Notes: generated from the letters alone by a model not told the origin. DNA of 64,000 bases from Longimicrobiales bacterium (GCA_963422615.1 OY730414.1:1346302-1410301), one strand, 5' to 3'; numbered from the stretch's first letter, positions 2,882 to 40,755 are shown. Numbers and translations are program-made.

Positions 2882-3170
2882 GAGGCGATGGATCCGTTCT
2901 GACCCGGGAGGTCCCAAGGGCGGGCACGGTGGATAAGGGGGGGATGCGGAGAATTGACCGGATTCACCGCACCCATGAAGATAAAGCATGTGGGGGCCAG
3001 CCAACTTAAGTTCGCCCCGCCCTCGGACTCGGAGTATCTGCTATGAAGTCCTTCGGAGCATCATCCATCGTCAGGTCTTCCGCTTCGCGTTGGAACCCGA
3101 CGGAGGCCGGCGCTTTCGTGGCGGGCCTCACCCAGCCCCCGCTTCCAACCGCGACAGCAAGGGGCGTGCG

Positions 3171-6011
3171 GTGAGCAACATCCCCGGCGGGGATCGCCGA
3201 TGGCCGTACCCCGGCGCCCGTTGGTGGAAGTTCGACTTTCACACCCATACCCCGGCCTCGAACGACTACGGCAAGGGATCCGAGCAGGAGACCCTGCGAA
3301 ACGTTACACCGCGCGATTGGTTGCTCGGTTTTATGGGCGCCGAAGTGGATTGCGTAGCGGTGACGGACCACAACTCGGGGGAGTGGATCGACAAGCTCAA
3401 AGCGACCCTCGTGGAGATGGAGGAGGAGAACCATCCGGACTTTCGGCCCCTGTACTTATTCCCAGGCATGGAAATCACCGCCAACGGCGGCATCCATGTC
3501 CTTGCGATATTCGACCCCGGCAAAGGATCCGCGGATATTGCAACGCTGCTCGGAGCCGTTGGATATCGAGGCGACCGCGGTGCCAGTGACGAAGTGGCGG
3601 ATTCGGCGCCCAAAGGTGTCGTGAAAGCCATCGGCGAAGCCGGCGGAATCCCTATTCTCGCCCATGTGGATGGTCCGTCAGGCGCCTGGAAGTTGCCCGG
3701 CAATACCCTGACGCCGCTGTTCGATCTCGACGATCTTTTCGCGATGGAGGTGGTCGATCCTGCGAAAGAGAAACCCGAGCTGTATCGTCAACGCAAGCTC
3801 GCCTGGGCGGAAGTGCTTGGCTCCGACTCGCATCATCCCGGCGGACCGGCAGGGTCTCGTTTCCCCGGCTCGCACTACACCTGGATCAAGATGGCGGAAC
3901 CCTCGCTGGAAGGACTGCGCTTGGCCTTGCTGGACGGCGGAGGCTTCTCGGTCCGGCGCAGCGACGATCCGGAGCCTTTCAATCCCTTTGCGCTGCCCAC
4001 GCATCGCATCGAAGCCATCGAGATTGACGACGCGCGGTACATGGGGCGCGGTAAGCCGGCCAGTCTTGGGTTCAGCCCGTGGCTCAACGCCCTGGTGGGC
4101 GGGCGAGGCACAGGCAAGTCCACGGTCATCCATGCACTGCGGCTGGCGGCGAGACGCGAGAATGAATTGGCGAATCTGGAAGCACGCAGCGAGCCTCGTC
4201 TGACCTTCGAGCGATTCAATCGCGTGCCCTCGCATCGCACGGACGAGGGTGGCTTGCAGGGTTCGACGAAAATTCGGTGTACCATGATGCGCGACGGCGT
4301 TCGTCATCGCCTTCGCTGGCGGCAGGACGGCGTCGGCACGGTCGTGGAAGACGATGCGGGCAACGGCGATTGGAAACCCTCACTTGCTCAGACGGTGACG
4401 CCGGAGCGTTTTCCGGTCCGCATATTCAGCCAGGGACAGATCGCCGCCCTGGCCGGCGAGAACCAGCAGGCGCTGTTGCAGGTGATCGACGAGGCGGCCA
4501 AGACAAGCAGGCTGCATGAAGACCTCAAAGAGGCCCGAAAAGCATTCTTCGCATCAAGGACGCGGATCCGGGCGCTCGACGGCAAGCTGGGCCGATGGGA
4601 CGATCTCGTCGTGCAGCGACAGGATACGGAGCGCAAGTTGAAGCGTTTCCAGGATGCAGGACACTCCATGATCCTGACCGCTTACGGGCGCCGTCGCCGT
4701 CAGCGTACGGAAACGGATCGGCAGCTCGAGGCATCGGAGGAGATCGCCGATCGCATTGAAGCGCTGGCGGCAGGACTTGAAGCCGAAGACCTGCCTGATG
4801 GACTGTTCGACGAAGGATCGGAAGAAGATCGGCAAGCGGTTTCGATCATGGCAGCGCTGGCCGCCGGCGTGCGCATGGCAGCCCGGGACCTGCGTTACGC
4901 CGCCAAGCGCCTGCGAGGAATTGCCGAAGCACAGCGCAAGGAGTTGACCAATAGCATGTGGCAGTCAGCCGTGGAACAGGCGACGCAGGGCTACACTGCG
5001 TTGGTCGAGACGCTGCGCAGTGTAGGCATTACCGACCCGAACGAGTACGGCCGCTTGGTACAGGACCGGCAACGGCTCGATAGGGAATCGAAGGCTCTGG
5101 AGTCACTGCAGGCGGAACGGGATCGGCTGACGGAGCAATCCGGGGGACAACTGCGGAAGGTCCTGGAGGCCCGCCGCGCCATAAGCGCCGCCCGCGAGAA
5201 TTTCCTGTCCGGAACGCTCGCCCGGAACCGCTTCGTGCGCATCCGACTTCGGACCTACGGCGACGGTCCGCGAGTCATCGAACGTTCCTTGCGGGAGGCG
5301 TTGAGGATTCTTGACGACCGCTTCCGGGACGACATCCTCGTGATGGACGTGGATCGCCCGGCCAATGGGTGGGTTGCGGAACTTCTTGCAGACTTGCCGG
5401 AAGGTACAACAGAACGGTGCTCCGAGGTCGAAAGCCGCATCGAGCACCTCAAACAGCGAATCAGCCGGGCCTGTTCAGGCAGCGGTGATTTCGGCGGACG
5501 CCTCAACAACTATTTCCAGCGTGAATTCAACCGGCATCCCGAGCTGCTGGACAACATGCTGACCTGGTTTCCAGAAGACGGATTATGGGTCGAGTACAGC
5601 CGCCGGGGCGACGGCACGGACTTTCAGCCTATCAATCAAGCGTCGGCGGGTCAGCGGTCGGCGGCAATGCTGGCGTTTCTGCTTGCGCACGGCGAGGAGC
5701 CTCTGGTACTAGATCAGCCGGAAGACGATCTCGACAACCACTTGATCTACGACCTGGTCGTGCGCCAGATGCGGGAGAACAAGCTCAGGCGGCAGATCAT
5801 CGTGGTGACGCACAACCCGAACATCGTCGTGAACGGAGATGCCGAGATGCTGCATGCACTCGGTTTCCAGCGAGGCCAGTGTCGGGTCGTGCAGTCGGGA
5901 TCGTTGCAGGAAGAAACGATGCGCGAGGAAGTCTGCCGGGTGATGGAAGGTGGACGCGAAGCCTTCGAGCGCCGTTATCGTCGCTTGGGGCGGGAGCCGG
6001 CTCGTGTTTGA
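3171..6011 (+). CDS. PHP-domain phosphoesterase fused to SMC/Rad50-like ABC ATPase (Ppl-like defence protein); maximal ORF starts at ATG 2988
   Basis: PHP motifs WWKFDFHTHTPAS, AVTDHNS, PGMEIT, GSDSHHP. Walker A LVGGRGTGKST, Q-loop FSQGQ, signature-like QASAGQRS, Walker B LVLDQPEDDLD, H-loop VVTHNPN, with a ~300-aa helical insert between Walker A and signature (Rad50/SbcC-like). GTG 3171 is in frame and preceded by AAGGGG. The 61 aa upstream of it (from ATG 2988) are low-complexity. Confidence 0.8.
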   Translation: MSNIPGGDRRWPYPGARWWKFDFHTHTPASNDYGKGSEQETLRNVTPRDWLLGFMGAEVDCVAVTDHNSGEWIDKLKATLVEMEEENHPDFRPLYLFPGMEITANGGIHVLAIFDPGKGSADIATLLGAVGYRGDRGASDEVADSAPKGVVKAIGEAGGIPILAHVDGPSGAWKLPGNTLTPLFDLDDLFAMEVVDPAKEKPELYRQRKLAWAEVLGSDSHHPGGPAGSRFPGSHYTWIKMAEPSLEGLRLALLDGGGFSVRRSDDPEPFNPFALPTHRIEAIEIDDARYMGRGKPASLGFSPWLNALVGGRGTGKSTVIHALRLAARRENELANLEARSEPRLTFERFNRVPSHRTDEGGLQGSTKIRCTMMRDGVRHRLRWRQDGVGTVVEDDAGNGDWKPSLAQTVTPERFPVRIFSQGQIAALAGENQQALLQVIDEAAKTSRLHEDLKEARKAFFASRTRIRALDGKLGRWDDLVVQRQDTERKLKRFQDAGHSMILTAYGRRRRQRTETDRQLEASEEIADRIEALAAGLEAEDLPDGLFDEGSEEDRQAVSIMAALAAGVRMAARDLRYAAKRLRGIAEAQRKELTNSMWQSAVEQATQGYTALVETLRSVGITDPNEYGRLVQDRQRLDRESKALESLQAERDRLTEQSGGQLRKVLEARRAISAARENFLSGTLARNRFVRIRLRTYGDGPRVIERSLREALRILDDRFRDDILVMDVDRPANGWVAELLADLPEGTTERCSEVESRIEHLKQRISRACSGSGDFGGRLNNYFQREFNRHPELLDNMLTWFPEDGLWVEYSRRGDGTDFQPINQASAGQRSAAMLAFLLAHGEEPLVLDQPEDDLDNHLIYDLVVRQMRENKLRRQIIVVTHNPNIVVNGDAEMLHALGFQRGQCRVVQSGSLQEETMREEVCRVMEGGREAFERRYRRLGREPARV

Positions 6012-7281
6012 CAGCGTCGAGGAACTGCTCGACAAGATAAGACTCGGCGAAGACACGTTCCTGGAGTGCAAGGAAGTACGTTTTGCGGGACAGAAGGTCA
6101 GCGGCCCTCGCCGTGATTCGCTCGCGGACGAGCTCGCCGCCTTCGCCAACGGCCGAGGCGGTGTCTGCCTGCTGGGCGTGGAAGACGGCTCGCGTGAAAT
6201 CGTAGGCATCCCCGTTGACCGTCTCGATGTCGTGGAAGATTTCGTCCGTGAAGGTTGCAGCGATTCCGTGGATCCGCCTCTCGCGCCCGTGATCGAACGC
6301 ATCCAGCTACCTGCGACCACCGGGGAAGAGGTTGCGATCATCAAGATCGAGGTGAAACGCAGTCTGTTCGTACACCGCAGTCCGGGAGGCTATCTGCACC
6401 GGGTAGGCAGCGCCAAGCGCACCATGTCGTCCGAATACCTGGCCCGGCTGTTCCAGCAGCGCAGCCAGGCCCGGATGATCCGCTTCGACGAACAGGTTGT
6501 TCCCGACGCCAAGCCGGACGATCTGTCATCCGAGATCTGGAGGTCTTTTCGCACCCCGCTCACCAGGAATAAATCGGAAAGTCTGCTTGCAAAACTTCAT
6601 ATGGTGCGACCCGATATGGACGGTACGCCGAGGCCGACGGTGGCAGGTGTGCTCATGGCCTCTCCGGATGCCCGGAGATGGCTGCCCAATGCCTACATTC
6701 AGGCAGTCGCCTATCGCGGCACGACCGTCAGAGCCGATACCAGCGATCCCTACCAATTGGATGCCTCGGATATCTCCGGCCCATTGAACAATCAAGTGAT
6801 TCAAGCCTGCCAATTCGTGGCGAAGAACATGAAAGTGGCGGCATTCAAGCATCTAGGCCGCCTGGATCGACCACAGTTCGACATGGAGGCGGTGTTCGAG
6901 GCTGTAGTCAATGCCGTGGCCCACCGCGACTACTCGATCCATGGCTCGAAGATCAGGTTGAAGCTGTTCCGCAACCGTCTTGAAATCTACTCACCCGGTG
7001 CCATCTCCAACACGATGGGAGTGGAAGATCTGCCCCACCTGCAGGCCACTCGAAACGAGATCGTTACCAGTCTGCTCGCCAAGTGCCCCGTCCCGACGAA
7101 CGTACCGTGGCTGGAGACCGAGCGGCGCACCATGATGGACAGACGTGGCGATGGGGTGCCGGTGATCTTGAACAACAGCCTGGAACTGTCGGGGAGAGAA
7201 CCGGAGTATCGTTTGATCGGCGACGCCGAACTGCTGTTGACCATCTATGCGCCCCGAGATGCATCGGAGGAATTGACCTAG
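6004..7281 (+). CDS. AlbA_2 DNA-binding domain + HATPase_c_4 protein (divergent-AAA / Schlafen-like, often annotated RecG-like regulator)
   Basis: GTG 6004 overlaps the stop of the upstream gene (GTGTTTGA) with GGGAG 8 nt upstream. The N-domain VFDSVEELLDKIRLGEDTFLECKEV...ELAAFANGRGGVCLLGVEDG is typical of AlbA_2. The C-terminal region AVFEAVVNAVAHRDYS is typical of HATPase_c_4. The maximal ORF from ATG 5950 overlaps the upstream gene by 60 nt. Confidence 0.7.
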   Translation: MFDSVEELLDKIRLGEDTFLECKEVRFAGQKVSGPRRDSLADELAAFANGRGGVCLLGVEDGSREIVGIPVDRLDVVEDFVREGCSDSVDPPLAPVIERIQLPATTGEEVAIIKIEVKRSLFVHRSPGGYLHRVGSAKRTMSSEYLARLFQQRSQARMIRFDEQVVPDAKPDDLSSEIWRSFRTPLTRNKSESLLAKLHMVRPDMDGTPRPTVAGVLMASPDARRWLPNAYIQAVAYRGTTVRADTSDPYQLDASDISGPLNNQVIQACQFVAKNMKVAAFKHLGRLDRPQFDMEAVFEAVVNAVAHRDYSIHGSKIRLKLFRNRLEIYSPGAISNTMGVEDLPHLQATRNEIVTSLLAKCPVPTNVPWLETERRTMMDRRGDGVPVILNNSLELSGREPEYRLIGDAELLLTIYAPRDASEELT

Positions 7282-7329: not shown

Positions 7330-9615
7330 TCATGCCGCTTTTTGGTATGAGGACCCGTTCCGGTCGGTTCGAAGCTGGCCGCTCCTTCTCGGATGGATTC
7401 CGACGAAAAAGAACCAAGAGAACCGCTCGTAGCGAGTGTATATGGCCATGCCGGGGCCGATGGCGGCCTGGGCCAAGTCCACCGGCGCGATGCCGCCGGA
7501 CCGGAGGATGCGCAGGGCCGGGGGGAGTTCGGTACGGAGCGTTTCCAGGAACTCCCGGCGGGTGGCCAGGGGCAGGTCTTCGGCTCGCTTTCGGCAGGCC
7601 AGGACGATGCTGGAGGCGAGGGCGTTGGTGCCCATGCCCACCATCCGGTTGGTCAGCTCGGTCCGCATCGGCCAGGTGCCGTTTATGGCGAGTCCCGATT
7701 CGATGACGGCGCCCAGGAAGGTCTCCCAGCCCGTGGAGGCGGTTCCGGATTTTCTTCTTGTTTCGGACTGCTTGAAGGCGTAGTAGATGGTGACCGGGAA
7801 CCCCGGGTGGGCCTGCTCCGCAAGCCGCTCGAGAGCCCGGGTCATTCCGCTCAGGAAGAAGCGTTCCGCCGCCTGTTTGCTGCCGTGTCGGTAGGGCGTG
7901 GCGACCAGCTCATCGGCCTTGGGCACAGCAAGCGTGGCGAACAGGTCCGGGAACATCGGCCGCAGGGAGCGGCGCAGCCAGACGTAGAAGAAGTCCGACA
8001 GGTCCGCGTAGCCGATGTTGTCGTAATAGGGCGGGTCGGTGGAGATGACTTCGGGACCGGCCGCCGCCTGGCTCGTTGCGTCAATCTGTGTCGCCATGCC
8101 GGCTGGGCCGCGAGGAAACGCGCCCAGGGCCTTTGCCGCCAATGCGATCTGGCCGGTCCAGTTGCCGCTTGATCCGGAAAATGGGTTGGCTTCCGCAAAA
8201 TCCCACATCATCGGAATAGCCTGCCTGCCAAACGTGTTTCGAATTGCCTCTCCCGGGACATTCCAGCTACAGATGCTTGACCAGTGGTTGGCACACTTGT
8301 CGACTGCGAACGCCAGATACAGGGACACCGCCTGGGCATAGGCCGTCGCGCCCCTGCCACCGTCGCGCAGCGGCTTGCCGTCGTCAGGGAAGCCGGTGGC
8401 GACAGCGTCTCGGCGGATCCGCTCTCGCGCTTCCCCCACCAGATCGGAAAAGGTCGTCAGGGCAACCAGCTGGCGGGGCGTGAAGAGGTCGGCGAAAGCG
8501 GGAAGACCGTAGTTGGGAGTCTTGAAGTCTCGCGGATTGTCGGGCAACGGTATGTCCGGCTTCCAAGTCGGATTCGCTTGGCGAGCGATCGTCTCATGCT
8601 CCGCCGACGGTGACAGATACACCCTTCCCCGAACTCCCGCCGCCACCACTGCCATCAACCGCGCACTCATGCGCCCAGCTTTGCCTTCCCCTCGAATGTG
8701 CTCGTACGGCAGACCCACTCCTGACATGAGGCAGCGAAACGCGCGTCGTTTGCCGGCTGATGTCCCCCGTTTCGCCGCGTCCACATCCGGCGGCGTTCCC
8801 ACCTTCACCGTGAACCGGTATCCCTTCCCCTCGATCACCGGCTCGACGTACGCCTCCTTCCCCTTCTTCGTCGACAGCATCCACGTCGACGCCAGCGGCA
8901 CCTCCACATCCCCATACGCAGGGTTCGGACTCTTCACCGTCCGCGCCCACAACCACGCGATCACCGTCAGCTTCCGCCCCGCATACGGCTTCAGGTCCGG
9001 CCGCTCCCGCACCATCTCCGGCGTCACCTCGACCGGCGGATACAAATGCCCGATCCGCTTCGCCGCCTCCTCCCGCATCCAACCCCCGTACCGCCGCACG
9101 TCCTCCGCCAACCCCTGCGCCCCGGACCACGTCTTCTCAACCAGCGTCGCGTCCGCGCGCGCCTCCGAGTTCACCGGCCCCCGACCCGCAAACCTCGGCG
9201 GTACCTCGATCATCGCCTTGCAGATCAGCACCGCTACCGGATTCAGATCGCTCGCGTGCGACTCCAGCCCCAGCCGCTGTGCCTCCAACGGCAGCGCCCC
9301 ACCCCCCGCAAATGGATCGTGAAAAGCAGGCAACTTCTCGGAATCAAACAACTCCCTGGCCCTGGGATGATCCCCGTTCTCGGCACACGCCCGCCCCCAA
9401 CTCCGCCAGATCTCACTCCTAGCCTCTTCAAGCACCCTCTCGTTGTTCGTGTTCTCCCACCTCACCAACTCCTCAATCATCCGAAACAACCGCCCCCGCT
9501 CACGCCCTGCGGCGATCTTCCGCAGGAAACTCCCTCTCGTCTTCGCCGGCTTCATCCACCATCTGGCGTCACCTTGACCGGGCGGCGGCCAGCGGACGAT
9601 CCGTGCCCACCACAA
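7330..9615 (-). pseudogene. DUF1156-family N6-adenine DNA methyltransferase, partial inverted copy A (N-terminal domain decayed at 9620-9750; C-terminus truncated at repeat boundary ~7426)
   Basis: 761-aa ORF with MTase motif I DPFAGGG and motif [23 protein letters not shown]. It lacks the DUF1156 N-terminal [15 protein letters not shown] segment. Only a decayed remnant with a stop (RKKLIEV..., [16 protein letters not shown]) survives at 9620-9750. It diverges from copy B after ...AIYTRYE and so lacks the ~190-aa conserved C-terminus. Confidence 0.7.
7426..9590. repeat. Left arm of ~2.15-kb inverted repeat (DUF1156 gene body)
   Basis: Six-frame ORFs 8513-9322(+) and 12536-13345(-) are identical over 269 aa, and 8594-9130(-) equals 12728-13264(+) over 178 aa. 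9046-9675(+) and 11976-12812(-) are identical for ~150 aa. The outer part 7426-8500 matches 13350-14431 with scattered substitutions and indels. Confidence 0.9.
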
Positions 9616-10067
9616 GTGGAGTGTGCTCGGATGCCCAGTGCCGGATCGACTTCTCTCGCTTTGACGCCGCGTTGATCTACGACCTAGCGGAAGCCCGAGA
9701 CCTCAATCAGCTTCTTGCGTATCTGAACGGTAGTCACCTATGATGTTCACCCAGATGGATGGCCTTGAGATGCGGCCGGCCCGACGCAACATCGCATGGA
9801 ACTACGACTAGGCCCCATTCTGGCTTGGCCACTGGGAAGTGCGCAATCCTGGTTCATTTCGGGTAGAGCAGTGCGCATTCCCGGGGGCATGAGCGTCTGG
9901 CGGCGCCGTCGGCCGTCCTTGCCGATCTCCTCCACCGCTACAGGGCGGAGCAGATAAGGCGCCTCTGGTATTTCCGGATCGGATTCTTCCGCCTTGGATC
10001 ACACCGGGCGACGCGTTATGGGGTTCCGGACCTCCCGATTCCCCCTGCCCTCCAGAGGAGAAGTACG

Positions 10068-10970
10068 ATGTCCAATGGTTCCCTTGAAGGAAGGAAAGCC
10101 AACCGTAAGCCGGTGCTTTTGGAAACTGCTGGCCAAGAGGTATTCACCCGGCATGGGCAGCGTCTGGAAACCCAGCACGTTAACTGTAAACCGCCGGATA
10201 TCTTCAGGCAACATCAGATTCGGGCCCTCGGACCTTTCGCGGCCGACCCATTGAACGAGATCACGAGAGGAGAGGTTCGGCAGTGGTTCGGAACGCTGCA
10301 CCGAACACCGGCCGCGGGCAATCGCTCCCTTCCCGTTCTTTCCGTAATCTTGAGGGAGGCCGAGGCCTATGGATACCGGTCGGCCGAAAGCAATCCCTGT
10401 CGTCCACTTCGGCGGTACCGGGAGGTTGGGCGCAAGCGCTTTCTCAATGCGACAGAGATAAGGCGCCTAGGCAGAGTGCTTGCCGACCGACGGACCGCAT
10501 GGCCCCTTCAGGCGACACTTGTTCGTCTATTGCTGCTCACCGGCTGTCGGCAGAGCGAAGTGCGAACGCTCGAGTGGCACAACTATCGCGACGGACACCT
10601 ACATTTGCGCGACAGCAAAACGGGTCCACGGACGATTTGGCTGTCGTCAGCTGCACGGCGGGAACTGGGGGAACTGTCCCGAACGGGGCGCTTCGTGTTC
10701 CCTGCGCCGGATGGTGCAAGTCCCATGCCGACGGAAACGCTCTACCGCGCCTGGCGGCACCTGCGCCATGACGCGGGAATGCCCGGACTCCGGCTGCATG
10801 ACCTCCGGCACACGTACGCGAGTCTGGCCCTGCGTCGTGGGGAGACGGTGGTCGTGATCGGTCGGCTGCTGGGACACCGGGATCCGAACACCACACTCAA
10901 GTATACGCACTTTGGCTCGACGATCCTGCAGGAGGCCGCAGAAATCGTTACCCAAGCCTTGAAAGGGTGA
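10068..10970 (+). CDS. Tyrosine recombinase / phage-integrase family (XerC/D-like), intact
   Basis: Box I LLLTGCRQSEV, HDLRHTYASLA, and LLGHRDPNTTLKYTH with the catalytic Tyr. A GAGGAG RBS lies 7 nt upstream of the ATG. Confidence 0.85.
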   Translation: MSNGSLEGRKANRKPVLLETAGQEVFTRHGQRLETQHVNCKPPDIFRQHQIRALGPFAADPLNEITRGEVRQWFGTLHRTPAAGNRSLPVLSVILREAEAYGYRSAESNPCRPLRRYREVGRKRFLNATEIRRLGRVLADRRTAWPLQATLVRLLLLTGCRQSEVRTLEWHNYRDGHLHLRDSKTGPRTIWLSSAARRELGELSRTGRFVFPAPDGASPMPTETLYRAWRHLRHDAGMPGLRLHDLRHTYASLALRRGETVVVIGRLLGHRDPNTTLKYTHFGSTILQEAAEIVTQALKG

Positions 10971-10974
10971 CGCC

Positions 10975-11899
10975 ATGGCTCCGAACTTTGCCCGATTCGT
11001 TACGAACCCCTGGAGAACCGCCTGCTACAACCGATGCAAGCCTTCGACCCGAAAGCGCATGGACAGCGCGCTTCGCACCCAGCTTCTTCCCGTCTTTGGA
11101 TCTTTGCGTCTGGACGAAATCAACCGGGTGGCCGTGCTCCGGTGGTTCGACGGATACAGCCGAACCGCGCCGGCGGGTGCGAACCGTACCCTGGACATCC
11201 TGCGGCAGATCCTCAACTACGGCATCGAGTGTGGCCATTTGGAATCGAACCCGGCCTGCGGTGTAAAACGCAATCCCAGGCCGAAGGTCACTCGTTTTCT
11301 CTCGAAAGACGAAGTGGCCCGTGTCCACGCAACCATTGACGCCCACCGGGGCCGCGGCTCCCGGTCGCCAAGCAAGCCGACATCATTCGCCTGTTGCTGT
11401 GGACGGATGCCGCAAGGGCGAAATCCTGAATCTGCAGTGGAAGGAAGTGGACGGCAGCGTACTGCGTTTGACCGACAGCAAGACGGGACCCAGAACCGTC
11501 CTTCTTGAGCAAGGAGGCGCAAGCCGTACTTGGCCGCCAGCCGCCTAGCGAAGGTCCCTACGTCTTCCCATCCCTTCTTGATCGTCGCGTCCCGTTCAAG
11601 CGAGCTTTCCCTATGGCGAAAGGTCCGACGCGAAGCCCGAATCCAAGATGTTCGGCGGTGCACACCTCCGGCATACGTTCGCCAGCTACGCCGCCCATGT
11701 GCCGGTGAATCCCGCTGGCCCGTCGTTTGCAGAAAGCTCGGCTTACGGTTGGCCGCCTTCCTTCATGGCCCTACGCTATATTCACATTGATGATCGGGGG
11801 CCAAAGAAGCCGCAGAGCGGATTGGCAGGGACATCGCCGAGCTACTGGACCCGAATGCGGAAGAATCGCGATTCCGGAACGCATCAACAAGGCGCCTAG
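10975..11899 (+). pseudogene. Second tyrosine recombinase (paralog of 10068-10970) disrupted by at least 3 frameshifts
   Basis: The N-domain (VLRWFDGYSRTAPAGANRTLDILRQILNYG) is in ORF 10975-11508. Box I CRKGEILNLQW...LTDSKTGPRTVLL is in the frame of 11321-11548. GPYVFPS is in 11505-11708. HLRHTFASYAA is in 11648-11899. Confidence 0.75.
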
Positions 11900-11961
11900 G
11901 CTCCGCGCCTGTATCTGTCGGTGACCCAAGGTAGATCGGCAAGGACGTCGACGAGCCGACG

Positions 11962-14900
11962 GTGGCGCCAGACGCTCATACCCACCCCTGCTTAAACGAA
12001 ATGAACCAGGATAAATCACCCGGTGAAAACACGCAAGAAGCTGATCGAAGTCGCACTGCCCAGTGGATTCCAATCAATGTAGCGGGGGCGCTAGAGAAGT
12101 CGATTCGGCACGGGCACCCGTCAACGTTGCACCTGTGGTGGTCACGCAAGCCACTGGCCGTAGCCCGGGCGGTAATTTTCGCCCAGGTCGTAGATGACCC
12201 GTCCGAGTACGTCAACGCGTTACTGTCGGACCCGGTGACGCTTCGGGAAGCCCAACGGATACTCGTCCGCAGCGCCGAACGGTCAAGGGACGCCAGGCGG
12301 CGTATGCAAGCCGGGAAGACGAGAGGGAGGCCCTGCGGGAGATCGCCGCCGAGCGTGAGCGGGGGCGGTTGTTTCGGATGATTGAGGAGTTGGTGAGGTG
12401 GGAGAACACGAACAACGAGAGGGTGCTTGAAGAGGCTAGGAGTGAGATCTGGCGGAGTTGGGGGCGGGCGTGTGCCGAGAACGGGGATCATCCCAGGGCC
12501 AGGGAGTTGTTTGATTCCGAGAAGTTGCCTGCTTTTCACGATCCATTTGCGGGGGGTGGGGCGCTGCCGTTGGAGGCACAGCGGCTGGGGCTGGAGTCGC
12601 ACGCGAGCGATCTGAATCCGGTAGCGGTGCTGATCTGCAAGGCGATGATCGAGGTACCGCCGAGGTTTGCGGGTCGGGGGCCGGTGAACTCGGAGGCGCG
12701 CGCGGACGCGACGCTGGTTGAGAAGACGTGGTCCGGGGCGCAGGGGTTGGCGGAGGACGTGCGGCGGTACGGGGGTTGGATGCGGGAGGAGGCGGCGAAG
12801 CGGATCGGGCATTTGTATCCGCCGGTCGAGGTGACGCCGGAGATGGTGCGGGAGCGGCCGGACCTGAAGCCGTATGCGGGGCGGAAGCTGACGGTGATCG
12901 CGTGGTTGTGGGCGCGGACGGTGAAGAGTCCGAACCCTGCGTATGGGGATGTGGAGGTGCCGCTGGCGTCGACGTGGATGCTGTCGACGAAGAAGGGGAA
13001 GGAGGCGTACGTCGAGCCGGTGATCGAGGGGAAGGGATACCGGTTCACGGTGAAGGTGGGAACGCCGCCGGATGTGGACGCGGCGAAACGGGGGACATCA
13101 GCCGGCAAACGACGCGCGTTTCGCTGCCTCATGTCAGGAGTGGGTCTGCCGTACGAGCACATTCGAGGGGAAGGCAAAGCTGGGCGCATGAGTGCGCGGT
13201 TGATGGCAGTGGTGGCGGCGGGAGTTCGGGGAAGGGTGTATCTGTCACCGTCGGCGGAGCATGAGACGATCGCTCGCCAAGCGAATCCGACTTGGAAGCC
13301 GGACATACCGTTGCCCGACAATCCGCGAGACTTCAAGACTCCCAACTACGGTCTTCCCGCTTTCGCCGACCTCTTCACGCCCCGCCAGCTGGTTGCCCTG
13401 ACGACCTTTTCCGATCTGGTGGGGGAAGCGCGAGAGCGGATCCGCCGAGACGCTGTCGCCACCGGCTTCCCTGACGACGGCAAGCCGCTGCGCGACGGTG
13501 GCAGGGGCGCGACGGCCTATGCCCAGGCGGTGTCCCTGTATCTGGCGTTCGCATTGACAAGTGTGCGGATCACTGGTCAAGCATCTGTTCGTGGGATGTC
13601 GGGCTACGTCAAGATTCGAAACACGTTTGGCAGGCAGGCTATTCCGATGATGTGGGATTTTGCGGAAGCCAACCCATTTTCCGGATCGAGCGGCAACTGG
13701 ACCGGCCAGGTCGCATGGGTCGCAAAGGCCCTGGGCGCGTTCCCTCGCGGCCCAGCCGGCATGGCGACACAGATTGACGCAACGAGCCAGGCGGCGGCCG
13801 GTCCCGAAGTCATCTCCACCGACCCACCCTACTACGACAACATCGGCTACGCGGACCTGTCGGACTTCTTCTACGTCTGGCTGCGCCGCTCCCTGCGGCC
13901 GATGTTCCCGACCTGTTCGCCACGCTTGCTGTGCCCAAGGCCGATGAGCTGGTCGCCACGCCCTACCGCCACGGCAGCAAACAGGCGGCGGAGCGCTTCT
14001 TCCTGAGCGGAATGACCCGGGCGCTGGCTCGACTTGCGGAGCAATCCCACCCGGCCTTCCCGGTTACCATCTACTACGCCTTCAAGCAGTCCGAAACAAG
14101 AAGAAAATCCGGAACCGCCTCCACGGGCTGGGAGACCTTCCTGGGCGCCGTCATCGAATCGGGACTCGCCATAAACGGCACCTGGCCGATGCGGACCGAG
14201 CTGACCAACCGGATGGTGGGCATGGGCACCAACGCCCTCGCCTCCAGCATCGTCCTGGCCTGCCGAAAGCGAGCCGAAGACCTGCCCCTGGCGACCCGCC
14301 GGGAGTTCCTGGAGACCCTCCGCACCGAACTCCCCCCGGCCCTGCGCATCCTCCGGTCCGGCGGCATCGCACCGGTGGACTTGGCCCAGGCCGCCATCGG
14401 CCCCGGCATGGCCATATACACTCGCTACGAGAAGGTGCTCGACGCCAGTGGGAAGCCGATGACGGTTCGCGAAGCCCTGGCGCTCATCAACCAGATCCTC
14501 GACGAGTCGCTGGCGGAGCAGGAAGGGGAATTCGACCGAGCCACCCGCTGGGCACTTGCCTGGTTCGAGGAACACGGCTTCGAGGAAGGAGATTTCGGCG
14601 GGGCCGAAACGCTTTCGAAAGCCAAGAACACCAGTATCGCCGGACTGGTAAAAGTCGGCATCCTGGCGTCCCGTGCCGGCCGAGTCCGTCTGCTGCGCCC
14701 TTCCGAGTTGCCCGACGACTGGGACCCGTCTGCTACCGACCCGCCGACCGTCTGGGAAGTGGTTCACCAGCTCATCCGAGCGCTGGAAAGCGAGGGCGAA
14801 ATGGCTGCGGCAAAACTTGTCGAACGCCTAGGCAGCGTCATCGGTAACGCCCGTGACCTCGCGTACCGCCTCTACTCCATCTCAGACCGAAAGAAGAGGG

Positions 14901-15001
14901 CCGCGGAAGCCCTGCAGTACAACGGCTTGGCCGGGAGCTGGACCGAGATCAAGAACCAGGCCGCAAAAGCTCAGCAGACCGAATTCGAGATGGATTCGTG
15001 A
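11962..15001 (+). pseudogene. DUF1156-family N6-adenine DNA methyltransferase copy B; complete N- and C-termini but frameshifted near 12060, 13560-13620 (two compensating indels) and ~13905
   Basis: ORFs 11962-12381 ([46 protein letters not shown]), 12369-14006 and 13931-15001 together cover the full DUF1156 length including the conserved C-terminus (...YNGLAGSWTEIKN). Relative to copy A, a 1-nt deletion (cccggacctg to cccgacctg) shifts the frame after [13 protein letters not shown]. Confidence 0.7.
12310..14431. repeat. Right arm of the ~2.15-kb inverted repeat
   Basis: Reverse complement of 7426-9590; the central >1 kb is 100% identical. Confidence 0.9.
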
Positions 15002-15156: not shown

Positions 15157-18100
15157 ATGGCTCTAACCAATCATGAACGCGTCGGGAAGGCGATGGCGCT
15201 TCTCCGCGCCGGCCTGGCCCCCTTCGTCGAGCGCGAAATCAAGGCCGCCCACCCCCCTGCCGTCACCCCGGCCCGCGAGGCCTACCGGTACCTGAACGAC
15301 CGCAAGATCACGGCCGAGCCGATCCCGGAGTGGGACGTCCACGCGTTGCTTCGGCTCATGTGGGAGGCATGGAACCGAGTCTTCGGGAAGACGCTGGGCA
15401 GCGCCGAGCGCAACTACGTTTCCGAACTCCGCGCCGCCCGGAATGCTTGGGCCCACCAGCGGAGCTTCACCAGTGACGACGCCCACCGCGCCCTTGATTC
15501 CACATACCGGCTGCTGACCTCGATCTCGGCGCCTCAGGCTGCGGACGTTGAGAAGATGAAGATGGAGCTCCTCCGGCTTCGCTTCAATGAACAGGCCCGC
15601 CACGTGCGGCGCCAGGGTGCTCAGACGGCGCTCAAGATCGGGGCCACGTCTTCCTTGCCCGCCTGGCGGGACGTGGTGTCGCCCCACCCGGATGTCCAGC
15701 GCGGCGACTACAAGCAGGCCGAGTTCGCGGCCGACCTCTGGCAGGTCTACAAGAACGACGCCTCGGACGAATACCGTGATCCGGCCGAGTTCTTCCGGCG
15801 CACCTACCTGACCGAGAGCTTGCGCGCCATGCTGGTGGGCGCGGTGACGCGGCTCACCTCGGGCCGGGGTGACCCGGTCATTCAGCTCCAGACCAACTTC
15901 GGCGGAGGCAAGACCCACTCTATGCTCGCCCTGTACCACCTGTTTTCGGGTACCCCGCCCACGCGTCTGGCTGGGGTGGACGCGCTCATGGGGGAAGCCC
16001 GGGTCGATGGACTTCCACGGGTTCGCCGGGTCGTCCTGGTCGGCACCAAGATCTCGCCCGCCAGTCCCCAAAAAAAGCCGGACGGCACGGTCGTTCGCAC
16101 CCTGTGGGGAGAACTCGCCTGGCAGCTGGGCGGCCGGGATGCCTACCGTAGGATCGCCGACGACGACGAGAAGGGCACCAGTCCGGGCGATGCCCTCCGG
16201 GGCCTGTTCAACGACTTCGGGCCGTGCGTGGTGCTCATTGACGAATGGGTGGCCTACGCCCGGCAGCTTCACGATCGCAGCGACCTTCCCGCCGGCAGCT
16301 TCGAGACGCAGTTCACGTTTGCCCAGACGCTGACCGAATCCGTAAAGGCCGCGTCCAACTGCCTGCTCGTGATCAGCCTTCCTGCATCCGATGCGGCGCC
16401 CTCTCCCCAGACGCAGGCGGACGACGTCGAAGTCGGCGGAGTTCGCGGCCGGGAAGCGCTGGACCGGCTGAGCAACGTCGTGGGCCGGCTGGAGTCCGCC
16501 TGGCATCCCGCGAGCGCGGAGGAGGGCTTCGCGATCGTCCGGCGACGCCTCTTCACGTCCATGGACGATGAGGGCCAAAAGCAGCGCGACGTCGTTGCGA
16601 GGACATTCTTCGACTTCTACCGAAGGCAACAACAGGAATTCCCGGTCGAGTGCCGCGACTCCGACTACGAGCGCCGGCTGAAGGAGGCGTACCCGATCCA
16701 CCCCGAGGTCTTCGATCGGCTCTACGAGGACTGGTCCACGCTTCTGAGATTCCAGCGCACGCGCGGCGTTTTGCGCCTGATGGCCACCATCATCCACAGC
16801 CTCTGGGAGAAGGGGGACCGGAGTCCTTTGATCCTCCCGTCCCTGGTGCCGATCGACGACCGGCGGGTCCGCTCCGAGCTCACGAGCTACCTGCCGGACC
16901 GATGGGTGCCGATCATCGAGTCGGACGTGGACGGCCCCAACTCCCTTCCGCTTCGTATAGACAAGCAGTACAGCAACCTGGGCAAACTGACCGCCTGTCG
17001 CCGCGTGGCCCGGACGGTGTACTTGGGCTCCGCGCCGCTGAAGGATGCGGCCAAGAAGGGCATGGACGACCGCCGCGTGAAGCTGGGTTGCGTGTTGCCC
17101 GGGGAGTCGGCCGCGATCTTCGGGGACGCGCTGCGTCGGCTGGCCGGGGAAGCGACGTACCTGTACCAGGACGGCCCCCGCGTCTGGTATGACACACAAC
17201 CCACCGTGACCAAGCTCGCGCGGGACCGGGCCGCGCAGCTGGAAGGCGCTCCCGCCAGGGTTTCCGAGGAGATCAAGCGCCGCGTGCAGGCGGATGCCAG
17301 CCGAAACCGAGGGGACTTCCACGGCGTCCACTGCTTCCCCCGGGAGGCGGCGGATGTTCCCGACCACCCCAGTGTCCGTTTGGTGATCCTGGGCGTAGAC
17401 GAGAGCTACATCAAGAGTGGCGAAAGCCCCGCCGAAGCTCGGGCCCGGGAACTGCTGGAGTCCCGAGGGACTGCTCCCCGTCTCTGCCGCAACGCGGTCG
17501 TGTTCCTGGCGCCCGACAAGACCCGGTTCCAGGATCTTGCGGCAACGGTCCGGATGTACCTCGCGTGGCAATCGATCGTCGCCGAAAAAGAATCCCTGAA
17601 CCTCGACCCCTTCCAGCTTAGGCAGGCCGAGAGCCGTCTTGACGACCAGGATGGCAGGGTGAAGGGCCAGATCCCGGAGGTCTTCCAGTGGCTTCTGGTG
17701 CCAGGTCAGGTCAAGCCCGAGTCCCCGGTAGAGTGGAAGGCGGTTCGCCTGACGGGACCGGGTGAGTTGGTGGTTCGGGCGAGCGCAAAGCTGAGGCGGG
17801 AGGACATGCTGGTCGACTGTTACGCGGGCACCCTTCTCAAGCTGGATCTCGACCGTATTCCTCTGTGGCAGGATCATGTGGAGGTACGGCAGCTGGCAGA
17901 CCACTATTCGAAGTACACCTACCTCCAGCGGGTCGGAGATCCTTCGGTCATCGCCAATGCCGTGCGGGAGGGAGTCGGCCTGTTGACCTGGGAGAACGAC
18001 ACGTTTGCCTACGCTGAGGGTTACGACGAAGAGAAGGGGCGGTACCTGGGGCTTAGGGCGGGGACCCATCTGCCGCCTTTGAGCCCGGAGGACAGGGGAT

Positions 18101-18486
18101 TGGTGGTCCGTTCCGCGATTGCTCGGGAGCAGCTGGACAAAGAGGTCGTGGGTCCGCCCCCGCCCCCCGAGAACGGCGTCGATACGGATTCCCGGCCACC
18201 ATCCTCCCCGGACGACAGTGAAGGGCCGTCCCTCCCTCCCCCCCTCCGGCCAAAGAAGCGCTTCTACGGGAACGTGGCCGTCGACCCGGTCCGGTCCGCA
18301 GGGGCCGTAGGACAGATTGCAGAGGAGGTGGTGTCGCATCTGGTTGCCTTGGTTGGCGCAAAAGTGGATGTGACCCTGGAGATCGAGGCCAAGATCCCGG
18401 ATGGCGCGCCGGAGCACGTCGTGCGGACTGTCACCGAGAATGCCCGAACGTTGGGATTCGGGAGTTTCGATTTCGAGGAGGAATAG
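15157..18486 (+). CDS. DUF499-family P-loop ATPase with N-terminal Swt1-like HEPN domain (partner of the DUF1156 methyltransferase)
   Basis: HEPN Rx4H motif LRAARNAWAHQ near the N-terminus. P-loop QTNFGGGKTHSMLALYHL and Walker B CVVLIDEWVAY. 1109-aa ORF. The antisense 1084-aa ORF 15163-18417 is a GC artefact. Confidence 0.85.
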   Translation: MALTNHERVGKAMALLRAGLAPFVEREIKAAHPPAVTPAREAYRYLNDRKITAEPIPEWDVHALLRLMWEAWNRVFGKTLGSAERNYVSELRAARNAWAHQRSFTSDDAHRALDSTYRLLTSISAPQAADVEKMKMELLRLRFNEQARHVRRQGAQTALKIGATSSLPAWRDVVSPHPDVQRGDYKQAEFAADLWQVYKNDASDEYRDPAEFFRRTYLTESLRAMLVGAVTRLTSGRGDPVIQLQTNFGGGKTHSMLALYHLFSGTPPTRLAGVDALMGEARVDGLPRVRRVVLVGTKISPASPQKKPDGTVVRTLWGELAWQLGGRDAYRRIADDDEKGTSPGDALRGLFNDFGPCVVLIDEWVAYARQLHDRSDLPAGSFETQFTFAQTLTESVKAASNCLLVISLPASDAAPSPQTQADDVEVGGVRGREALDRLSNVVGRLESAWHPASAEEGFAIVRRRLFTSMDDEGQKQRDVVARTFFDFYRRQQQEFPVECRDSDYERRLKEAYPIHPEVFDRLYEDWSTLLRFQRTRGVLRLMATIIHSLWEKGDRSPLILPSLVPIDDRRVRSELTSYLPDRWVPIIESDVDGPNSLPLRIDKQYSNLGKLTACRRVARTVYLGSAPLKDAAKKGMDDRRVKLGCVLPGESAAIFGDALRRLAGEATYLYQDGPRVWYDTQPTVTKLARDRAAQLEGAPARVSEEIKRRVQADASRNRGDFHGVHCFPREAADVPDHPSVRLVILGVDESYIKSGESPAEARARELLESRGTAPRLCRNAVVFLAPDKTRFQDLAATVRMYLAWQSIVAEKESLNLDPFQLRQAESRLDDQDGRVKGQIPEVFQWLLVPGQVKPESPVEWKAVRLTGPGELVVRASAKLRREDMLVDCYAGTLLKLDLDRIPLWQDHVEVRQLADHYSKYTYLQRVGDPSVIANAVREGVGLLTWENDTFAYAEGYDEEKGRYLGLRAGTHLPPLSPEDRGLVVRSAIAREQLDKEVVGPPPPPENGVDTDSRPPSSPDDSEGPSLPPPLRPKKRFYGNVAVDPVRSAGAVGQIAEEVVSHLVALVGAKVDVTLEIEAKIPDGAPEHVVRTVTENARTLGFGSFDFEEE

Positions 18487-18814
18487 CCGCGGCGGTCAGG
18501 CGGTCGTCCAGTCCGAACGTTCTTCTCAGGTCGTGCCGGATGCCTTGAACGGATCCACGACCTTGACTTGGGGCCAGGGGTGCTGTTGCCATTCGGCCCC
18601 CAAGCCAATTTTCGGCTCGTAGCTGTCTGTCTGGTTCCGTGGCGTCCCGCTCCCCGAGCCAGCGCCGTCTTTGCCGGAACCAGAGACTCCCCGGCGGCTC
18701 CGGTCCGGAACGCCCCCGCCCGGAATTCACCTCCAGGCCCAGGGAACGCGGGAACCCCGGACGGCGGACAATAAGGGGATTCCCGGCGTTGAGCTTAACC
18801 CCCGCGGAAGCCCT

Positions 18815-18834
18815 AGGAACAAAGTGACGTTCCT
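18815..18834. promoter_or_regulatory. Inverted repeat AGGAAC-N8-GTTCCT in the 570-bp non-coding region between the island and the thiolase operon (candidate operator)
   Basis: Perfect 6-bp arms seen directly in the sequence, with no T-run after it. It lies ~230 bp upstream of the thiolase GTG start. Confidence 0.25.
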
Positions 18835-19060
18835 GTTACGTTTAACTGTTGTGCGCCCCAAACGGCAGGATGTCCGGGCTCCGGACCCTATCTGTATCCG
18901 GGGCCCAGGGCGAATCTTCCCGGCGAAGCGATACGATCGCCCGCCGCCGGCGCGCACCACCGGAGAAGTTGCCCTGAAAACGATCACGCGGCCCGCCTTG
19001 AGTCGAGGGGGAATCGTCGTTTTCTACCGACGACGGGCTGGAAATACAAGGAACCTCTGA

Positions 19061-38805: not shown

Positions 38806-39051
38806 GGGTACGCTCGCCTGCCGTTGAAGAGTATCGGGAATCGGTACCTGGGACGCCGGCGGTCTCGACCCCGAGACGTATGACCTCCTCCTCCCGCCGG
38901 GTAGACCCTGTGCGGTACGTTCGGAGGGCGGATTCGGCCTGGGGGGCGGATTCGGGCCGCGGCCCAGGACGAAGTCCGGTATGCTCCGCAACCTGTTCAC
39001 AATACCGGGAGCGGCGCAAGCGACCAAGCGGAAGGGACATCTAGATACGCC

Positions 39052-40755
39052 ATGGGTCCTCCACATCCAATGGGCAAGGGCGGAGACGCCTGCCCACCGG
39101 GATTGCCGCGCGCCCGCCCGCCGGGACTACAGGGAAGGTACCTCTACGATGTGGATCCGGTCGACGGCGACCAAGCCTGGGCCCTTTTCCAGGCTTGTCG
39201 CGACGGAGAAGAGGCTCGGGTGCGGGCGCTGATTCGGGCGGATCCCGACTTGGTCCACGCCCAATATTGGTACACGCAACCCGTCCACTTCTCCGTCTAC
39301 GCGAACCAGCCGGCTGTCCTTCGAATTCTACTGGACGCGGGAGCGGAGCCGGGACGAACCCGCTTCATGGATTCCGGCTGGAAGAAGCTGCTCCAGCACG
39401 CCGAAGCAATGGGGTTCGAAGCGGTCCGGGAGATTCTCCTGCATGCCGTACAAGAGCGGTTCGGATACGATGCTGCCTTCTCTGGGCTCAAGGATGCTGT
39501 CCTTTCCCGGGGGCGCCGTCGGATCGAAGCGGTGTTGGGAGGGCGCCCCGCGCTCGCTCGGGCGTCCGATGTCCAGGGCAACAACGCCATTCACTGGGCG
39601 GTCATGACCCGGCAGCCGGAACTGATTTCCCTGTTCTGCGCGTGTGGTGCGGATCCCCAGCACCGCAGGAGCGACGGTCAGACCCCGGCCCAGCTCCTCT
39701 TCAACGGCGACTACGAATACCGAACCTGGCGGGAAATGAAGGGAGTGGATCACGCCAGCGTCGGCGCTGTGCTCCGCGCCCTGGTTGATGCCGGTGCGGT
39801 CCCGGATTTCTCGGTGTCCTGTGCCACGGGCGACTTGGCCCGGATCCGGGCCCTCGTTGAAGGGAATCCGGACCCGGCTCGGCGCCTCGACTCCGGGCGG
39901 CGGAATCCGCTGACCTATGCGGCGCGGGGCGGCCACCTCGAGGTCGTACGCGTCCTCTTGGCCCACGGAGCCGACCCCAACATGCCGGAAGAACTGGCCC
40001 CCCGAGGGCACGCGCTATGGATGGCTTGTGCTTCGGGTCGCGCGGACATCGCGGAAGTCCTGCTGCACTACGGTGCCAATCCGAACTCCGCACCCGATTC
40101 ATCGGACAGCTGTCTGGGGATTGCCCGGTCGAATCCCGGCAAGGGGGCGCGCAGGATCGAGAGGCTCCTTCGGGCTCATGGAGCGGAAACGCCGATTTGG
40201 CACATGACCAACGAACAGCTTCAGGATGCCATTGTCAGGGCTGCGCCGGCCAGTCGGGATCCCTGGTTTCCGGTGGAGGTCTTCGCCCGCAACGACCTTG
40301 ACCTCGCCGCCCGGCTCCTGGAGGTGGATCCCGATGCGGCCAGTCGTATGAACGGGGGGACCCTGCGCCTCGGGAGTCCCGACGCGGCCATTACCGACGG
40401 CAAGCTCCTGGAGCGCCTGCTGGAAGCCGGCTTCGACCCCGATCGACGGGGATGGCTGGGCCAGACGGCACTGCACCACTATTCGGGGCGGGGCGAAACA
40501 GCCAATGTCCTGCGGTTGCTCCGGCATGGCGCTGGCGTGAACGTCCTGGACGACGAATCCCGCGGAACTCCGCTTGCCTGGGCCGCGGCGTCGGGACACG
40601 AAGATACCGTGAAGCTGTTGCTGGAGCACGGGGCCGATCCCGGTCTGCCCCACGACGTTTCGGCGGCGAGGCCGGGGGAACGGGCCCGGTCTGCCGGGCA
40701 TTCGCGGATTGTGGCCCGCCTGAAAGCCGGCGCCGCTTCTCGTGAAAGCATGTGA
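39052..40755 (+). CDS. Ankyrin-repeat protein
   Basis: Multiple ANK repeats (NPLTYAARGGHLEVVRVLLAHGADPN, TPLAWAAASGHEDTVKLLLEHGADP). Confidence 0.8.
   Translation: MGPPHPMGKGGDACPPGLPRARPPGLQGRYLYDVDPVDGDQAWALFQACRDGEEARVRALIRADPDLVHAQYWYTQPVHFSVYANQPAVLRILLDAGAEPGRTRFMDSGWKKLLQHAEAMGFEAVREILLHAVQERFGYDAAFSGLKDAVLSRGRRRIEAVLGGRPALARASDVQGNNAIHWAVMTRQPELISLFCACGADPQHRRSDGQTPAQLLFNGDYEYRTWREMKGVDHASVGAVLRALVDAGAVPDFSVSCATGDLARIRALVEGNPDPARRLDSGRRNPLTYAARGGHLEVVRVLLAHGADPNMPEELAPRGHALWMACASGRADIAEVLLHYGANPNSAPDSSDSCLGIARSNPGKGARRIERLLRAHGAETPIWHMTNEQLQDAIVRAAPASRDPWFPVEVFARNDLDLAARLLEVDPDAASRMNGGTLRLGSPDAAITDGKLLERLLEAGFDPDRRGWLGQTALHHYSGRGETANVLRLLRHGAGVNVLDDESRGTPLAWAAASGHEDTVKLLLEHGADPGLPHDVSAARPGERARSAGHSRIVARLKAGAASRESM

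Follow-up and report, generated by a model that had tools for sequence, protein, structure and literature searches.

A 64,000-nucleotide stretch of DNA from a Longimicrobiales bacterium (GCA_963422615.1 OY730414.1:1346302-1410301), referred to below as the window, very probably carries one copy of the known Hma system (the Type-1 BREX-related, or BR, system), with a HEPN-fused ATPase and with a gene layout characteristic of a clade of related loci, in which methylase sequences appear to have been swapped between two gene slots. The system is named for its helicase-methylase-ATPase operon (Payne et al. 2021, PMC8565338), and the PADLOC family models gave 1069 bits for the window ATPase HmaC, 1299 bits for the helicase portion of HmaA and 1154 bits for the methylase HmaB. 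The three core proteins of Hma are thus found, among them a DUF499 ATPase with its Walker A and Walker B motifs and a DUF1156 methylase. An earlier interpretation made from the DNA alone (the sequence-only reading), which centred on the ATPase gene at 15157–18486, had proposed a system of helicase, methylase and ATPase resembling restriction-modification (RM), and the scores bear this out. The locus departs from the one-strand, single-copy rule of Payne et al. 2024: the minus strand encodes hmaA and a second methylase gene, hmaB', the plus strand encodes hmaB and hmaC, and hmaB is thus present twice. The core genes and elements, numbered from the first nucleotide of the window, are the following.

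15157–18486, plus strand: hmaC, HEPN-fused DUF499 AAA+ ATPase of 1109 residues in an uninterrupted frame (PADLOC HmaC; Pfam HEPN_Swt1 and DUF499)
15187–15528, plus strand: Swt1-type HEPN domain of HmaC, residues 11–124, matched by PF18731 over the entire profile
15901–16248, plus strand: AAA+ core of HmaC, with Walker A GGGKTH at 15901–15918 and Walker B LIDEW at 16234–16248
1–2881, minus strand: hmaA, SNF2 helicase, N-terminal part of about 954 residue-equivalents, truncated at the window edge; one frameshift, located between 2750 and 2736
7333–9740, minus strand: hmaB', short second DUF1156-type N6-methyltransferase gene, C-terminal ~190 residues absent, 5' end frame-disrupted as assembled
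12023–15001, plus strand: hmaB, DUF1156 methyltransferase gene of the full-length type directly upstream of hmaC, with at least three frameshifts as assembled
7426–9570, no strand: left arm of the inverted repeat (hmaB' body), repeats I1–I5
12289–14431, no strand: right arm of the inverted repeat (hmaB body), from the repeat search
10068–10970, plus strand: int1, tyrosine recombinase of 300 residues (Pfam Phage_integrase), residues ~31–64 scrambled by compensating indels
10975–11850, plus strand: int2, second tyrosine recombinase gene, catalytic half split over three frames as assembled

The 1109-residue HmaC matched PF18731 (HEPN_Swt1) at residues 11–124, covering positions 1–115 of the 115-position profile (E 1.8e-32), and DUF499 (PF04465) at residues 291–627 (E 1.6e-27), which confirms the predicted DUF499 ATPase with an N-terminal Swt1-like HEPN domain. 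The match to the PADLOC HmaC model spans residues 166–1108, and the HEPN domain therefore lies outside that model. The Rx4H motif RNAWAHQ, which the sequence-only reading had put at the beginning of the protein, is present; RNAWAH occupies residues 95–100 (nucleotides 15439–15456) and hence falls within the N-terminal domain rather than at the first residues of the protein. The Walker A motif GGGKTH corresponds to residues 249–254 and the Walker B motif LIDEW to residues 360–364. A homology search with HmaC gave a candidate set of at least 8000 proteins, and the counts of architectures and motifs refer to the best 120 listed. All 120 of these (61–100% identity, from several phyla) combine PF18731 with PF04465; RNxWAH and GGGKTH are each conserved in all 120, and DEW in 119. 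Based on the full-length profile match and the conserved Rx4-6H motif, the domain belongs to the Swt1-like HEPN group, and conservation of the motif suggests RNase activity. In the AlphaFold model residues 1–150 are all helical, with block values of the predicted local distance difference test (pLDDT) of 75–96, which is compatible with a HEPN helical bundle. A Foldseek comparison of the model with the PDB gave weak AAA+ likenesses only (proteasome Rpt, p97 and FtsH), and a sequence search of the PDB gave no match; the model thus points to an AAA+-like core with a helical N-terminal domain and is uninformative beyond that.

Since every one of the 120 best homologues listed carries both domains, with RNxWAH and GGGKTH invariant, the HEPN-DUF499 fusion is the ordinary, majority form of a known protein. 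It is not a new inference: HEPN-DUF499 proteins accompanied by an SNF2-DUF3883 helicase in RM-like operons of the Ava_2192 type were described in 2013 (Anantharaman et al. 2013, PMC3710099), and the reclassification of Type-1 BR (Nucleic Acids Research 2026, PMC12839542) reports HEPN-fused ATPases in 1370 of 2446 taxa.

The helicase encoded at 1–2881 on the minus strand is a bona fide HmaA. Pfam detects SNF2-rel_dom and Helicase_C in it, the PADLOC HmaA model is matched over positions 48–936 of 1176, and the PADLOC BrxHI/BrxHII models match the same protein at 307–315 bits. As judged from a sister locus (L130), in which HmaA has 1143 residues and a terminal NOV_C / PD-(D/E)xK nuclease domain, the window would lack some 235 residues at the C-terminus of HmaA, this domain among them, which would be encoded past its left edge; the nuclease domain is found also in L002 and L004. 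Intact loci were sought by scanning species-representative genomes with HmaC, and the 45 loci obtained were mapped by tblastn. By this mapping, hmaA, hmaB and hmaC are colinear on one strand in 21 loci out of the 25 having both hmaA and hmaC, the hosts being Planctomycetota, Accumulibacter, Nitrospira, Caballeronia, Dehalococcoidia and others. The HmaA proteins of these 21 loci are 58–70% identical to that of the window, and over the 25 loci the HmaA and HmaC identities to the window proteins co-vary (Spearman rho 0.71, p 7e-5). Because the window helicase scores as HmaA, the same type stands beside hmaB-hmaC in 21 loci and the identities co-vary, the SNF2 helicase situated about 12 kb away is the cognate partner of HmaC and the regular third component of the system. 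The sequence-only reading had named this very gene as the candidate partner and as the sole helicase of the window, and had suggested the comparison with intact loci; both claims hold, no other helicase having been found among the large open reading frames (ORFs) scanned in the window.

The inverted duplication, likewise noticed earlier, is real, its arms comprising 1222 nucleotides at 100%, 525 at 97% and 297 at 97% identity. The 1154 bits of the PADLOC HmaB model were obtained on hmaB', over model positions 77–782 of 967, and the two ORF pieces of hmaB gave 818 and 525 bits over positions 72–607 and 602–960, respectively. Both window copies contain the DPFAGGG and DPPY motifs; the DUF1156 motif is readable, frame-broken as assembled, and Pfam DUF1156 is detected in the orthologues. 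In the clade, hmaB' encodes about 800 residues, starts with DUF1156 and is devoid of the last ~190 residues of HmaB, and hmaB encodes about 960 residues; the hmaB' orthologues of L002, L004 and L130 have 797–822 residues with DUF1156. In each clade genome examined, one and the same nucleotide marks the end of the homology between hmaB and hmaB'. Just upstream of DPPY (~residues 480–600) there is a hypervariable region, with 41–59% nucleotide identity between copies and between genomes, which behaves as would be expected of a target-recognition region. In the window itself the two methylase bodies are 93–100% identical, i.e. almost homogenised.

Between the two methylase genes lie the recombinase genes. 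The catalytic residues R, K, H, R, H and Y of Int1 are all present and are invariant across nine orthologues; relative to the second sister locus (L131), int1 has indels at 10159–10255, the stretch being scrambled yet open. Querying with Int2 of L002 by tblastn gave a window match over residues 3–288 that runs across stop codons and frame changes, and Int2 is intact, with 302 residues, in L130 and L131. A recombinase pair stands beside hmaB in ten other genomes (L001, L002, L003, L004, L008, L009, L034, L041, L043 and L130), and hmaB' or a remnant of it occurs in nine of the ten genomes bearing the recombinase cassette, the exception being L003. The clade formed by the closest relatives consists of Longimicrobiales/Gemmatimonadota metagenome-assembled genomes together with two from Acidobacteriota; their HmaC proteins share 76–80% identity with that of the window and their loci are not colinear. 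The common order is hmaA(-) hmaB'(-) int1(+) int2(+) hmaB(+), then an AAA_15 gene with a DUF4276 gene, then hmaC(+), in full or in part in L002, L004, L008, L009, L034, L041 and L043, and in L001 and L003 these elements recur with the recombinase cassette turned the other way. Read along the minus strand, hmaB' comes before hmaA, an order that simple inversion of an A-B-C operon would not yield. It is clear that in this clade the system is arranged as divergent operons on either side of two recombinase genes, hmaB'->hmaA on one side and hmaB->hmaC on the other, and that the inverted duplication is not accidental; it is a conserved second methylase gene facing hmaB across the recombinase pair.

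The AAA_15/AAA_21 ATPase and DUF4276 pair is found in most clade relatives (L002, L003, L004, L009, L028, L047 and L048), between hmaB and hmaC or downstream, and is absent from the window, in which hmaB and hmaC are 155 nucleotides apart. A related locus without hmaB (L006, 5626–13342), in which hmaA has lost an internal part and a Schlafen gene lies immediately ahead of hmaC, looks like a degraded form of the same island.

Sequence has moved between the two methylase slots of the clade. Within a genome, the methylase genes share blocks of identity exceeding the identity between genomes, and these blocks are placed differently in each genome. The conserved core of the methylases splits into a B and a B' lineage, and the hmaC-proximal gene of L003 carries the B' lineage; furthermore, the variable region of hmaB' in L004 is 83% identical to that of hmaB in L008. 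The clade accordingly shows exchange of specificity regions between slots and concerted evolution of hmaB and hmaB'. Given the shared end of homology, the identity blocks, the lineage swap in L003, the region shared by L004 and L008, both orientations of the cassette and the intact Int1, the best reading is that recombination between hmaB and hmaB' would move the specificity-bearing body between the full-length and the truncated slot. Of the features of an inversion module, the window has inverted repeats inside full-length and truncated paralogues and an adjacent site-specific recombinase. In the relatives the repeats bracket variable segments, with 41–59% identity between the copies; in the window the copies are 93–100% identical. 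In the assemblies both orientations of the cassette are seen between genomes (L001 and L003 versus L002, L004, L008, L009, L034, L041 and L043). Tentatively, and with somewhat less than an even chance of being right, we propose a clade-specific two-recombinase switch that would move the DUF1156 methylase body between the full-length slot, in the operon of the HEPN-ATPase, and the truncated slot, in the operon of the helicase-nuclease; two zones of indels in the window, 9500–10260 and 11360–12270, would then be the footprint of a population of mixed orientation. No literature on DUF1156 with a recombinase or an inversion was found, nor any inversion switch described for Hma, and the paper on BR systems (PMC12839542) mentions neither recombinases nor inversion.

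A metagenome scan with the Int1 alignment returned 80 loci, with a best identity of 49% and none adjoining hma genes, so that the link between recombinases and Hma is not extended beyond the clade. Among the 80 loci (L050–L129), which contain distant relatives of Int1, 16 have at least two integrase-like matches close together, and in L051–L053 an ORF of ~385 residues directly follows the Int1-like gene.

Several genes are frame-disrupted as assembled: at least three times in hmaB, at least three times at the 5' end of hmaB', at least six times in int2 and once in hmaA. The frameshifts of hmaB are near 12062–12072, between 12264 and 12354, and at a 1-nucleotide deletion at ~13906–13908 seen in the alignment of the two methylase copies, and the N-terminal pieces of hmaB', beginning with RKKLIEV, are spread over three different frames. 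Two sister loci, L130 and L131, found through recombinases at least 90% identical to the window Int1, allow these disruptions to be judged. L130, whose hmaA shares 95.9% identity with that of the window, has the order housekeeping genes, hmaA (1143 residues, NOV_C), hmaB' (800 residues, DUF1156), int1, int2 (302 residues) and hmaB. Over 9617–12622 the window differs from L131 by 44 indels and 55 mismatches; the window hmaA differs from that of L130 by 3 indels and 107 mismatches, an indel:mismatch ratio of ~0.8 in the central 3 kb versus 0.03 in hmaA. The indels are 1–4 nucleotides long, mostly insertions, and fall into two clusters, 9500–10260 and 11360–12270, which flank the inverted repeat on its inner side and leave 10260–11360 between them clean. 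Owing to this pattern and to the intact genes of the sisters, most indels in hmaB, hmaB' and int2 are probably consensus errors rather than decay, reads of mixed orientation being one possible cause of the indel zones. Pseudogenisation as the explanation of the frameshifts was downgraded once the comparison with L130 and L131 had given this pattern, which is typical of consensus error. The hmaA frameshift stands apart. Caballeronia HmaA matches the window gene by tblastn in two high-scoring segments in different frames, which places the frameshift between nucleotides 2750 and 2736; it consists of one additional G in a run of Gs near 2740, ~46 codons from the start, and it is absent in L002, L004 and L034.

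Two further genes stand between hmaA and hmaB', and a gene-free segment follows hmaC.

2988–6011, plus strand: Ppl-like/TrlF-family ABC-type ATPase of 1007 residues with an N-terminal PHP-like region (PADLOC, NCBIfam)
5950–7281, plus strand: Schlafen/AlbA_2 and HATPase_c_4 protein of 443 residues, start codon uncertain (Pfam SLFN_AlbA_2, HATPase_c_4)
18487–19060, no strand: right edge of the island, 574 nucleotides with no detectable gene, followed by housekeeping genes

The Ppl-like protein scores 435 bits with PADLOC Ppl and 569 bits with NCBIfam TrlF_fam_ATP, above the cut-off of 350; with the NCBIfam equivalog Ppl_antiphage it reaches 519 bits, below the cut-off of 1000, and is thus placed outside Ppl proper. 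Both it and the Schlafen gene are foreign to the core Hma system. Septu, PARIS and Ppl have been reported inside Halomonas hma loci (PMC11232893), embedded genes occur in 62.7% of Hma systems, 96.7% of them in the orientation of the host system (bioRxiv 10.1101/2024.01.29.577857), and Schlafen RNases with a minimal histidine-kinase domain are frequent neighbours of Type-1 BR (PMC12839542). A Schlafen homologue, 61% identical, lies between hmaA and hmaC in L006. L130 is devoid of window positions 2950–7152 (the Ppl gene and most of the Schlafen gene) and retains the last 38 Schlafen codons. Because this 3' end is retained, the Ppl-Schlafen cassette was ancestral to the window genome and its sister and was deleted in L130; a recent insertion is thereby ruled out. 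A short direct repeat (GATGGGG..TGCGG-like) at both junctions (window 2950–7152; L130 7129–7137) suggests deletion by illegitimate recombination in L130.

These observations bear on how the layout arose. The sequence-only reading had supposed that insertions split an ancestral system, i.e. that two recent accidents in the window genome, the arrival of the Ppl pair and the inverted duplication, broke a colinear helicase-methylase-ATPase operon and displaced the helicase by 12 kb and onto the other strand. Foreign genes are indeed nested within the system, the Ppl and Schlafen genes separating hmaA from the methylase, such embedding is common in Hma, and colinearity prevails in 21 of the 25 loci with both genes. 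The accidents themselves are nevertheless very improbable, since the second methylase gene and the strand of the helicase belong to a layout conserved, with its recombinase pair, in ten other genomes (HmaC identity 76–80%); L130 has the divergent layout even with the Ppl and Schlafen genes missing and its Schlafen remnant speaks for loss there and not for gain in the window genome, and the position of hmaB' ahead of hmaA is no product of simple inversion. The family to which the ATPase had been related, with DUF1156, DUF499 and DUF3780, also proved to be the wrong one. Assignment to Type-2 BR (DUF499, DUF1156, DUF3780 and a PLD-helicase) can draw on weak cross-matches, namely PADLOC DUF499 at 102 bits, PADLOC DUF1156_MTase at 71 bits and NCBIfam DUF499_antiphage at 132 bits, yet these are far below the 1069 and 1154 bits of HmaC and HmaB and below the NCBIfam cut-offs of 1200 and 1000. 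The NCBIfam models for helicase, ATPase and methylase gave 166, 132 and 100 bits against cut-offs of 1100, 1200 and 1000, the helicase has no N-terminal PLD/HKD match (phospholipD_antiphage covers only residues 547–674) and no DUF3780 gene is present in the locus, all of which makes a Type-2 BR locus extremely improbable.

Two other explanations concern the state and the mobility of the island. The methylases, int2 and the helicase could be pseudogenes, leaving the intact HEPN-HmaC as the orphan of a decaying remnant, as the frameshifts enumerated above, the hmaA lesion common to L130 and the degradation of other clade loci (L006, with no hmaB and a deletion in hmaA; L001, with an insertion sequence in hmaB; L048, fragmentary) would suggest. 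This is unlikely in view of the scattered events of 1–4 nucleotides in near-identical sequence, which are the signature of consensus error, of the sister sequences, 95% identical, that encode intact genes, and of the full-length profile matches of hmaC, Ppl, Schlafen and the housekeeping neighbours. Alternatively, the recombinases might be integrases of a mobile island that carries Hma, hmaB' being an independent second methylase and no inversion being programmed. Both recombinases belong to the 'phage integrase' family, integrases co-occur with 19.1% of hma loci (PMC11232893), the distant Int1 relatives of the 80 metagenome loci (at most 49% identity) never adjoin hma genes, and inversion is deduced from comparison of assemblies. 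This explanation is doubtful, although its chances are somewhat better than those of decay: in every clade genome the pair is central between the inverted methylase genes and not at an island edge, the edge of L130 just past hmaA has no integrase, both orientations of the cassette occur, the hmaC-proximal slot of L003 holds sequence of the B' lineage, a variable region is common to a B' and a B slot, and the within-genome patches of identity differ in position among genomes.

An Hma system in a clade layout with probable exchange of methylase sequence remains the preferred reading, and several points weigh against it. Since L130, assembled independently, has the hmaA frameshift too, the lesion may be genuine, or it may be a systematic sequencing error; if the disruptions of hmaA, hmaB, hmaB' and int2 are real, the system is dead in the window genome. 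As the two methylase bodies are 93–100% identical, a switch would have next to no effect in the window genome, and the inversion itself is deduced from comparative assemblies. Methylation, restriction, RNase activity and inversion are all predicted for the window genome. The one Hma system tested experimentally, that of Halomonas and there only for HmaA, has a 958-residue HmaC with no HEPN domain (PMC11232893), and no experimental study of a HEPN-fused HmaC was found in the literature. In addition, the full-length AlphaFold model of HmaC has a mean pLDDT of 64.7 and a predicted template modelling score of 0.34 and is poor past residue ~410, and Foldseek gave no PDB match for it at E <= 0.001.

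Judged from the protein families and published work, HmaB, a DUF1156-type N6-adenine methyltransferase, would mark host DNA at the motif read by its variable target-recognition region. HmaC, an ORC/STAND-like AAA+ protein, would assemble or license a scanning complex on unmodified DNA, along which HmaA would translocate and which it would nick; the nickase activity of the Halomonas HmaA nuclease defends against phage T4 (PMC11232893, 2024). The HEPN domain may be a second, RNA-directed effector, serving as a backup RNase that shuts the cell down or aborts infection when DNA restriction fails. By the comparative data, the recombinase pair would invert the segment between the methylase repeats and so change the variable region in the full-length methylase.

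The 574 nucleotides at 18487–19060 gave no Pfam, Rfam or tRNA match, and as housekeeping genes start at 19061 (thiolase, 3-hydroxyacyl-CoA dehydrogenase, acyl-CoA dehydrogenase, serine hydroxymethyltransferase and enolase) this segment is the right edge of the island, as had been suggested for the non-coding gap. No DUF3780 gene follows hmaC, only this gap and then the thiolase gene; the absence had been noted correctly, and it is expected, since DUF3780 and a PLD-helicase are the hallmarks of Type-2 BR, the sister system. The question, left by the sequence-only reading, of what follows leftwards of the helicase can be answered from L130: the remaining ~235 HmaA residues with the nuclease domain, directly after which the island ends, with no integrase at that edge. 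Scans for Rfam families, tRNAs, promoters and terminators around the island gave nothing significant. At 38905–40752 the window also encodes an unrelated 616-residue ORF rich in ankyrin repeats (Ank_2, E 1e-39), which adjoins an AcrB/OEP efflux cluster.

The HEPN-DUF499 fusion, the SNF2-nuclease partner and the nested defence genes have all been published, and the finding as noted from the sequence adds nothing new. The clade layout with two methylase and two recombinase genes is a moderate lead. If true, programmed specificity switching, which is known from Type I RM, BREX-1 PglX and DISARM DrmMI, would occur in the Hma/BR family too, and this would be the first such switch described there. 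A survey of Hma kept only loci with one copy per gene on one strand (bioRxiv 10.1101/2024.01.29.577857), and the clade layout would be excluded by this curation rule of the Payne et al. 2024 survey.

Among known systems, Hma/Type-1 BR is matched in its three core proteins (1069–1299 bits), its Swt1-type HEPN domain with an intact Rx4H motif, its SNF2 helicase whose orthologue has NOV_C/DUF3883, its DUF1156-type methylase with DPPY and its embedded foreign defence genes. Unlike the usual Hma, the window has non-colinear genes, two inverted methylase genes with two recombinase genes between them, hmaA and hmaB' transcribed away from hmaB-hmaC, and frames disrupted as assembled. With Type-2 BR (DUF499, DUF1156, DUF3780 and a PLD/HKD-helicase) it shares a homologous ATPase and methylase, the SF2 helicase core and the RM-like logic; it differs in having neither a DUF3780 gene nor an N-terminal HKD nuclease on the helicase, and in scores far under the family cut-offs, and the HEPN fusion is described for Type-1 and not for Type-2 BR. 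The Hma/BR core proteins are homologues of BrxC, PglXI and BrxHII of Type-3 BREX (PMC12839542), whereas the window system is without PglZ, BrxA, BrxB and BrxL and its ATPase is of the DUF499 type, not the DUF6079 type. The Ppl-like ATPase and Schlafen-type protein nested between hma genes resemble the defence genes embedded in other Hma loci (Payne et al. 2024; PMC11232893), and unlike most of those they point opposite to the flanking hmaA and hmaB'. Programmed gene-altering inversions are known for PglX of BREX-1, DrmMI of Class 1 DISARM and Type IIG enzymes (Milman et al. 2023, PMC9881135). The window differs from these in its DUF1156/HmaB target, not listed in PMC9881135, in two tandem recombinases versus one, in methylase copies that each head an operon of their own, and in an inversion predicted from assemblies; it shares with them, and with the hsdS shufflons of Type I systems, full-length and truncated inverted methylase copies, a tyrosine recombinase next to them and internal repeats, between which the relatives of the window have a variable specificity region.

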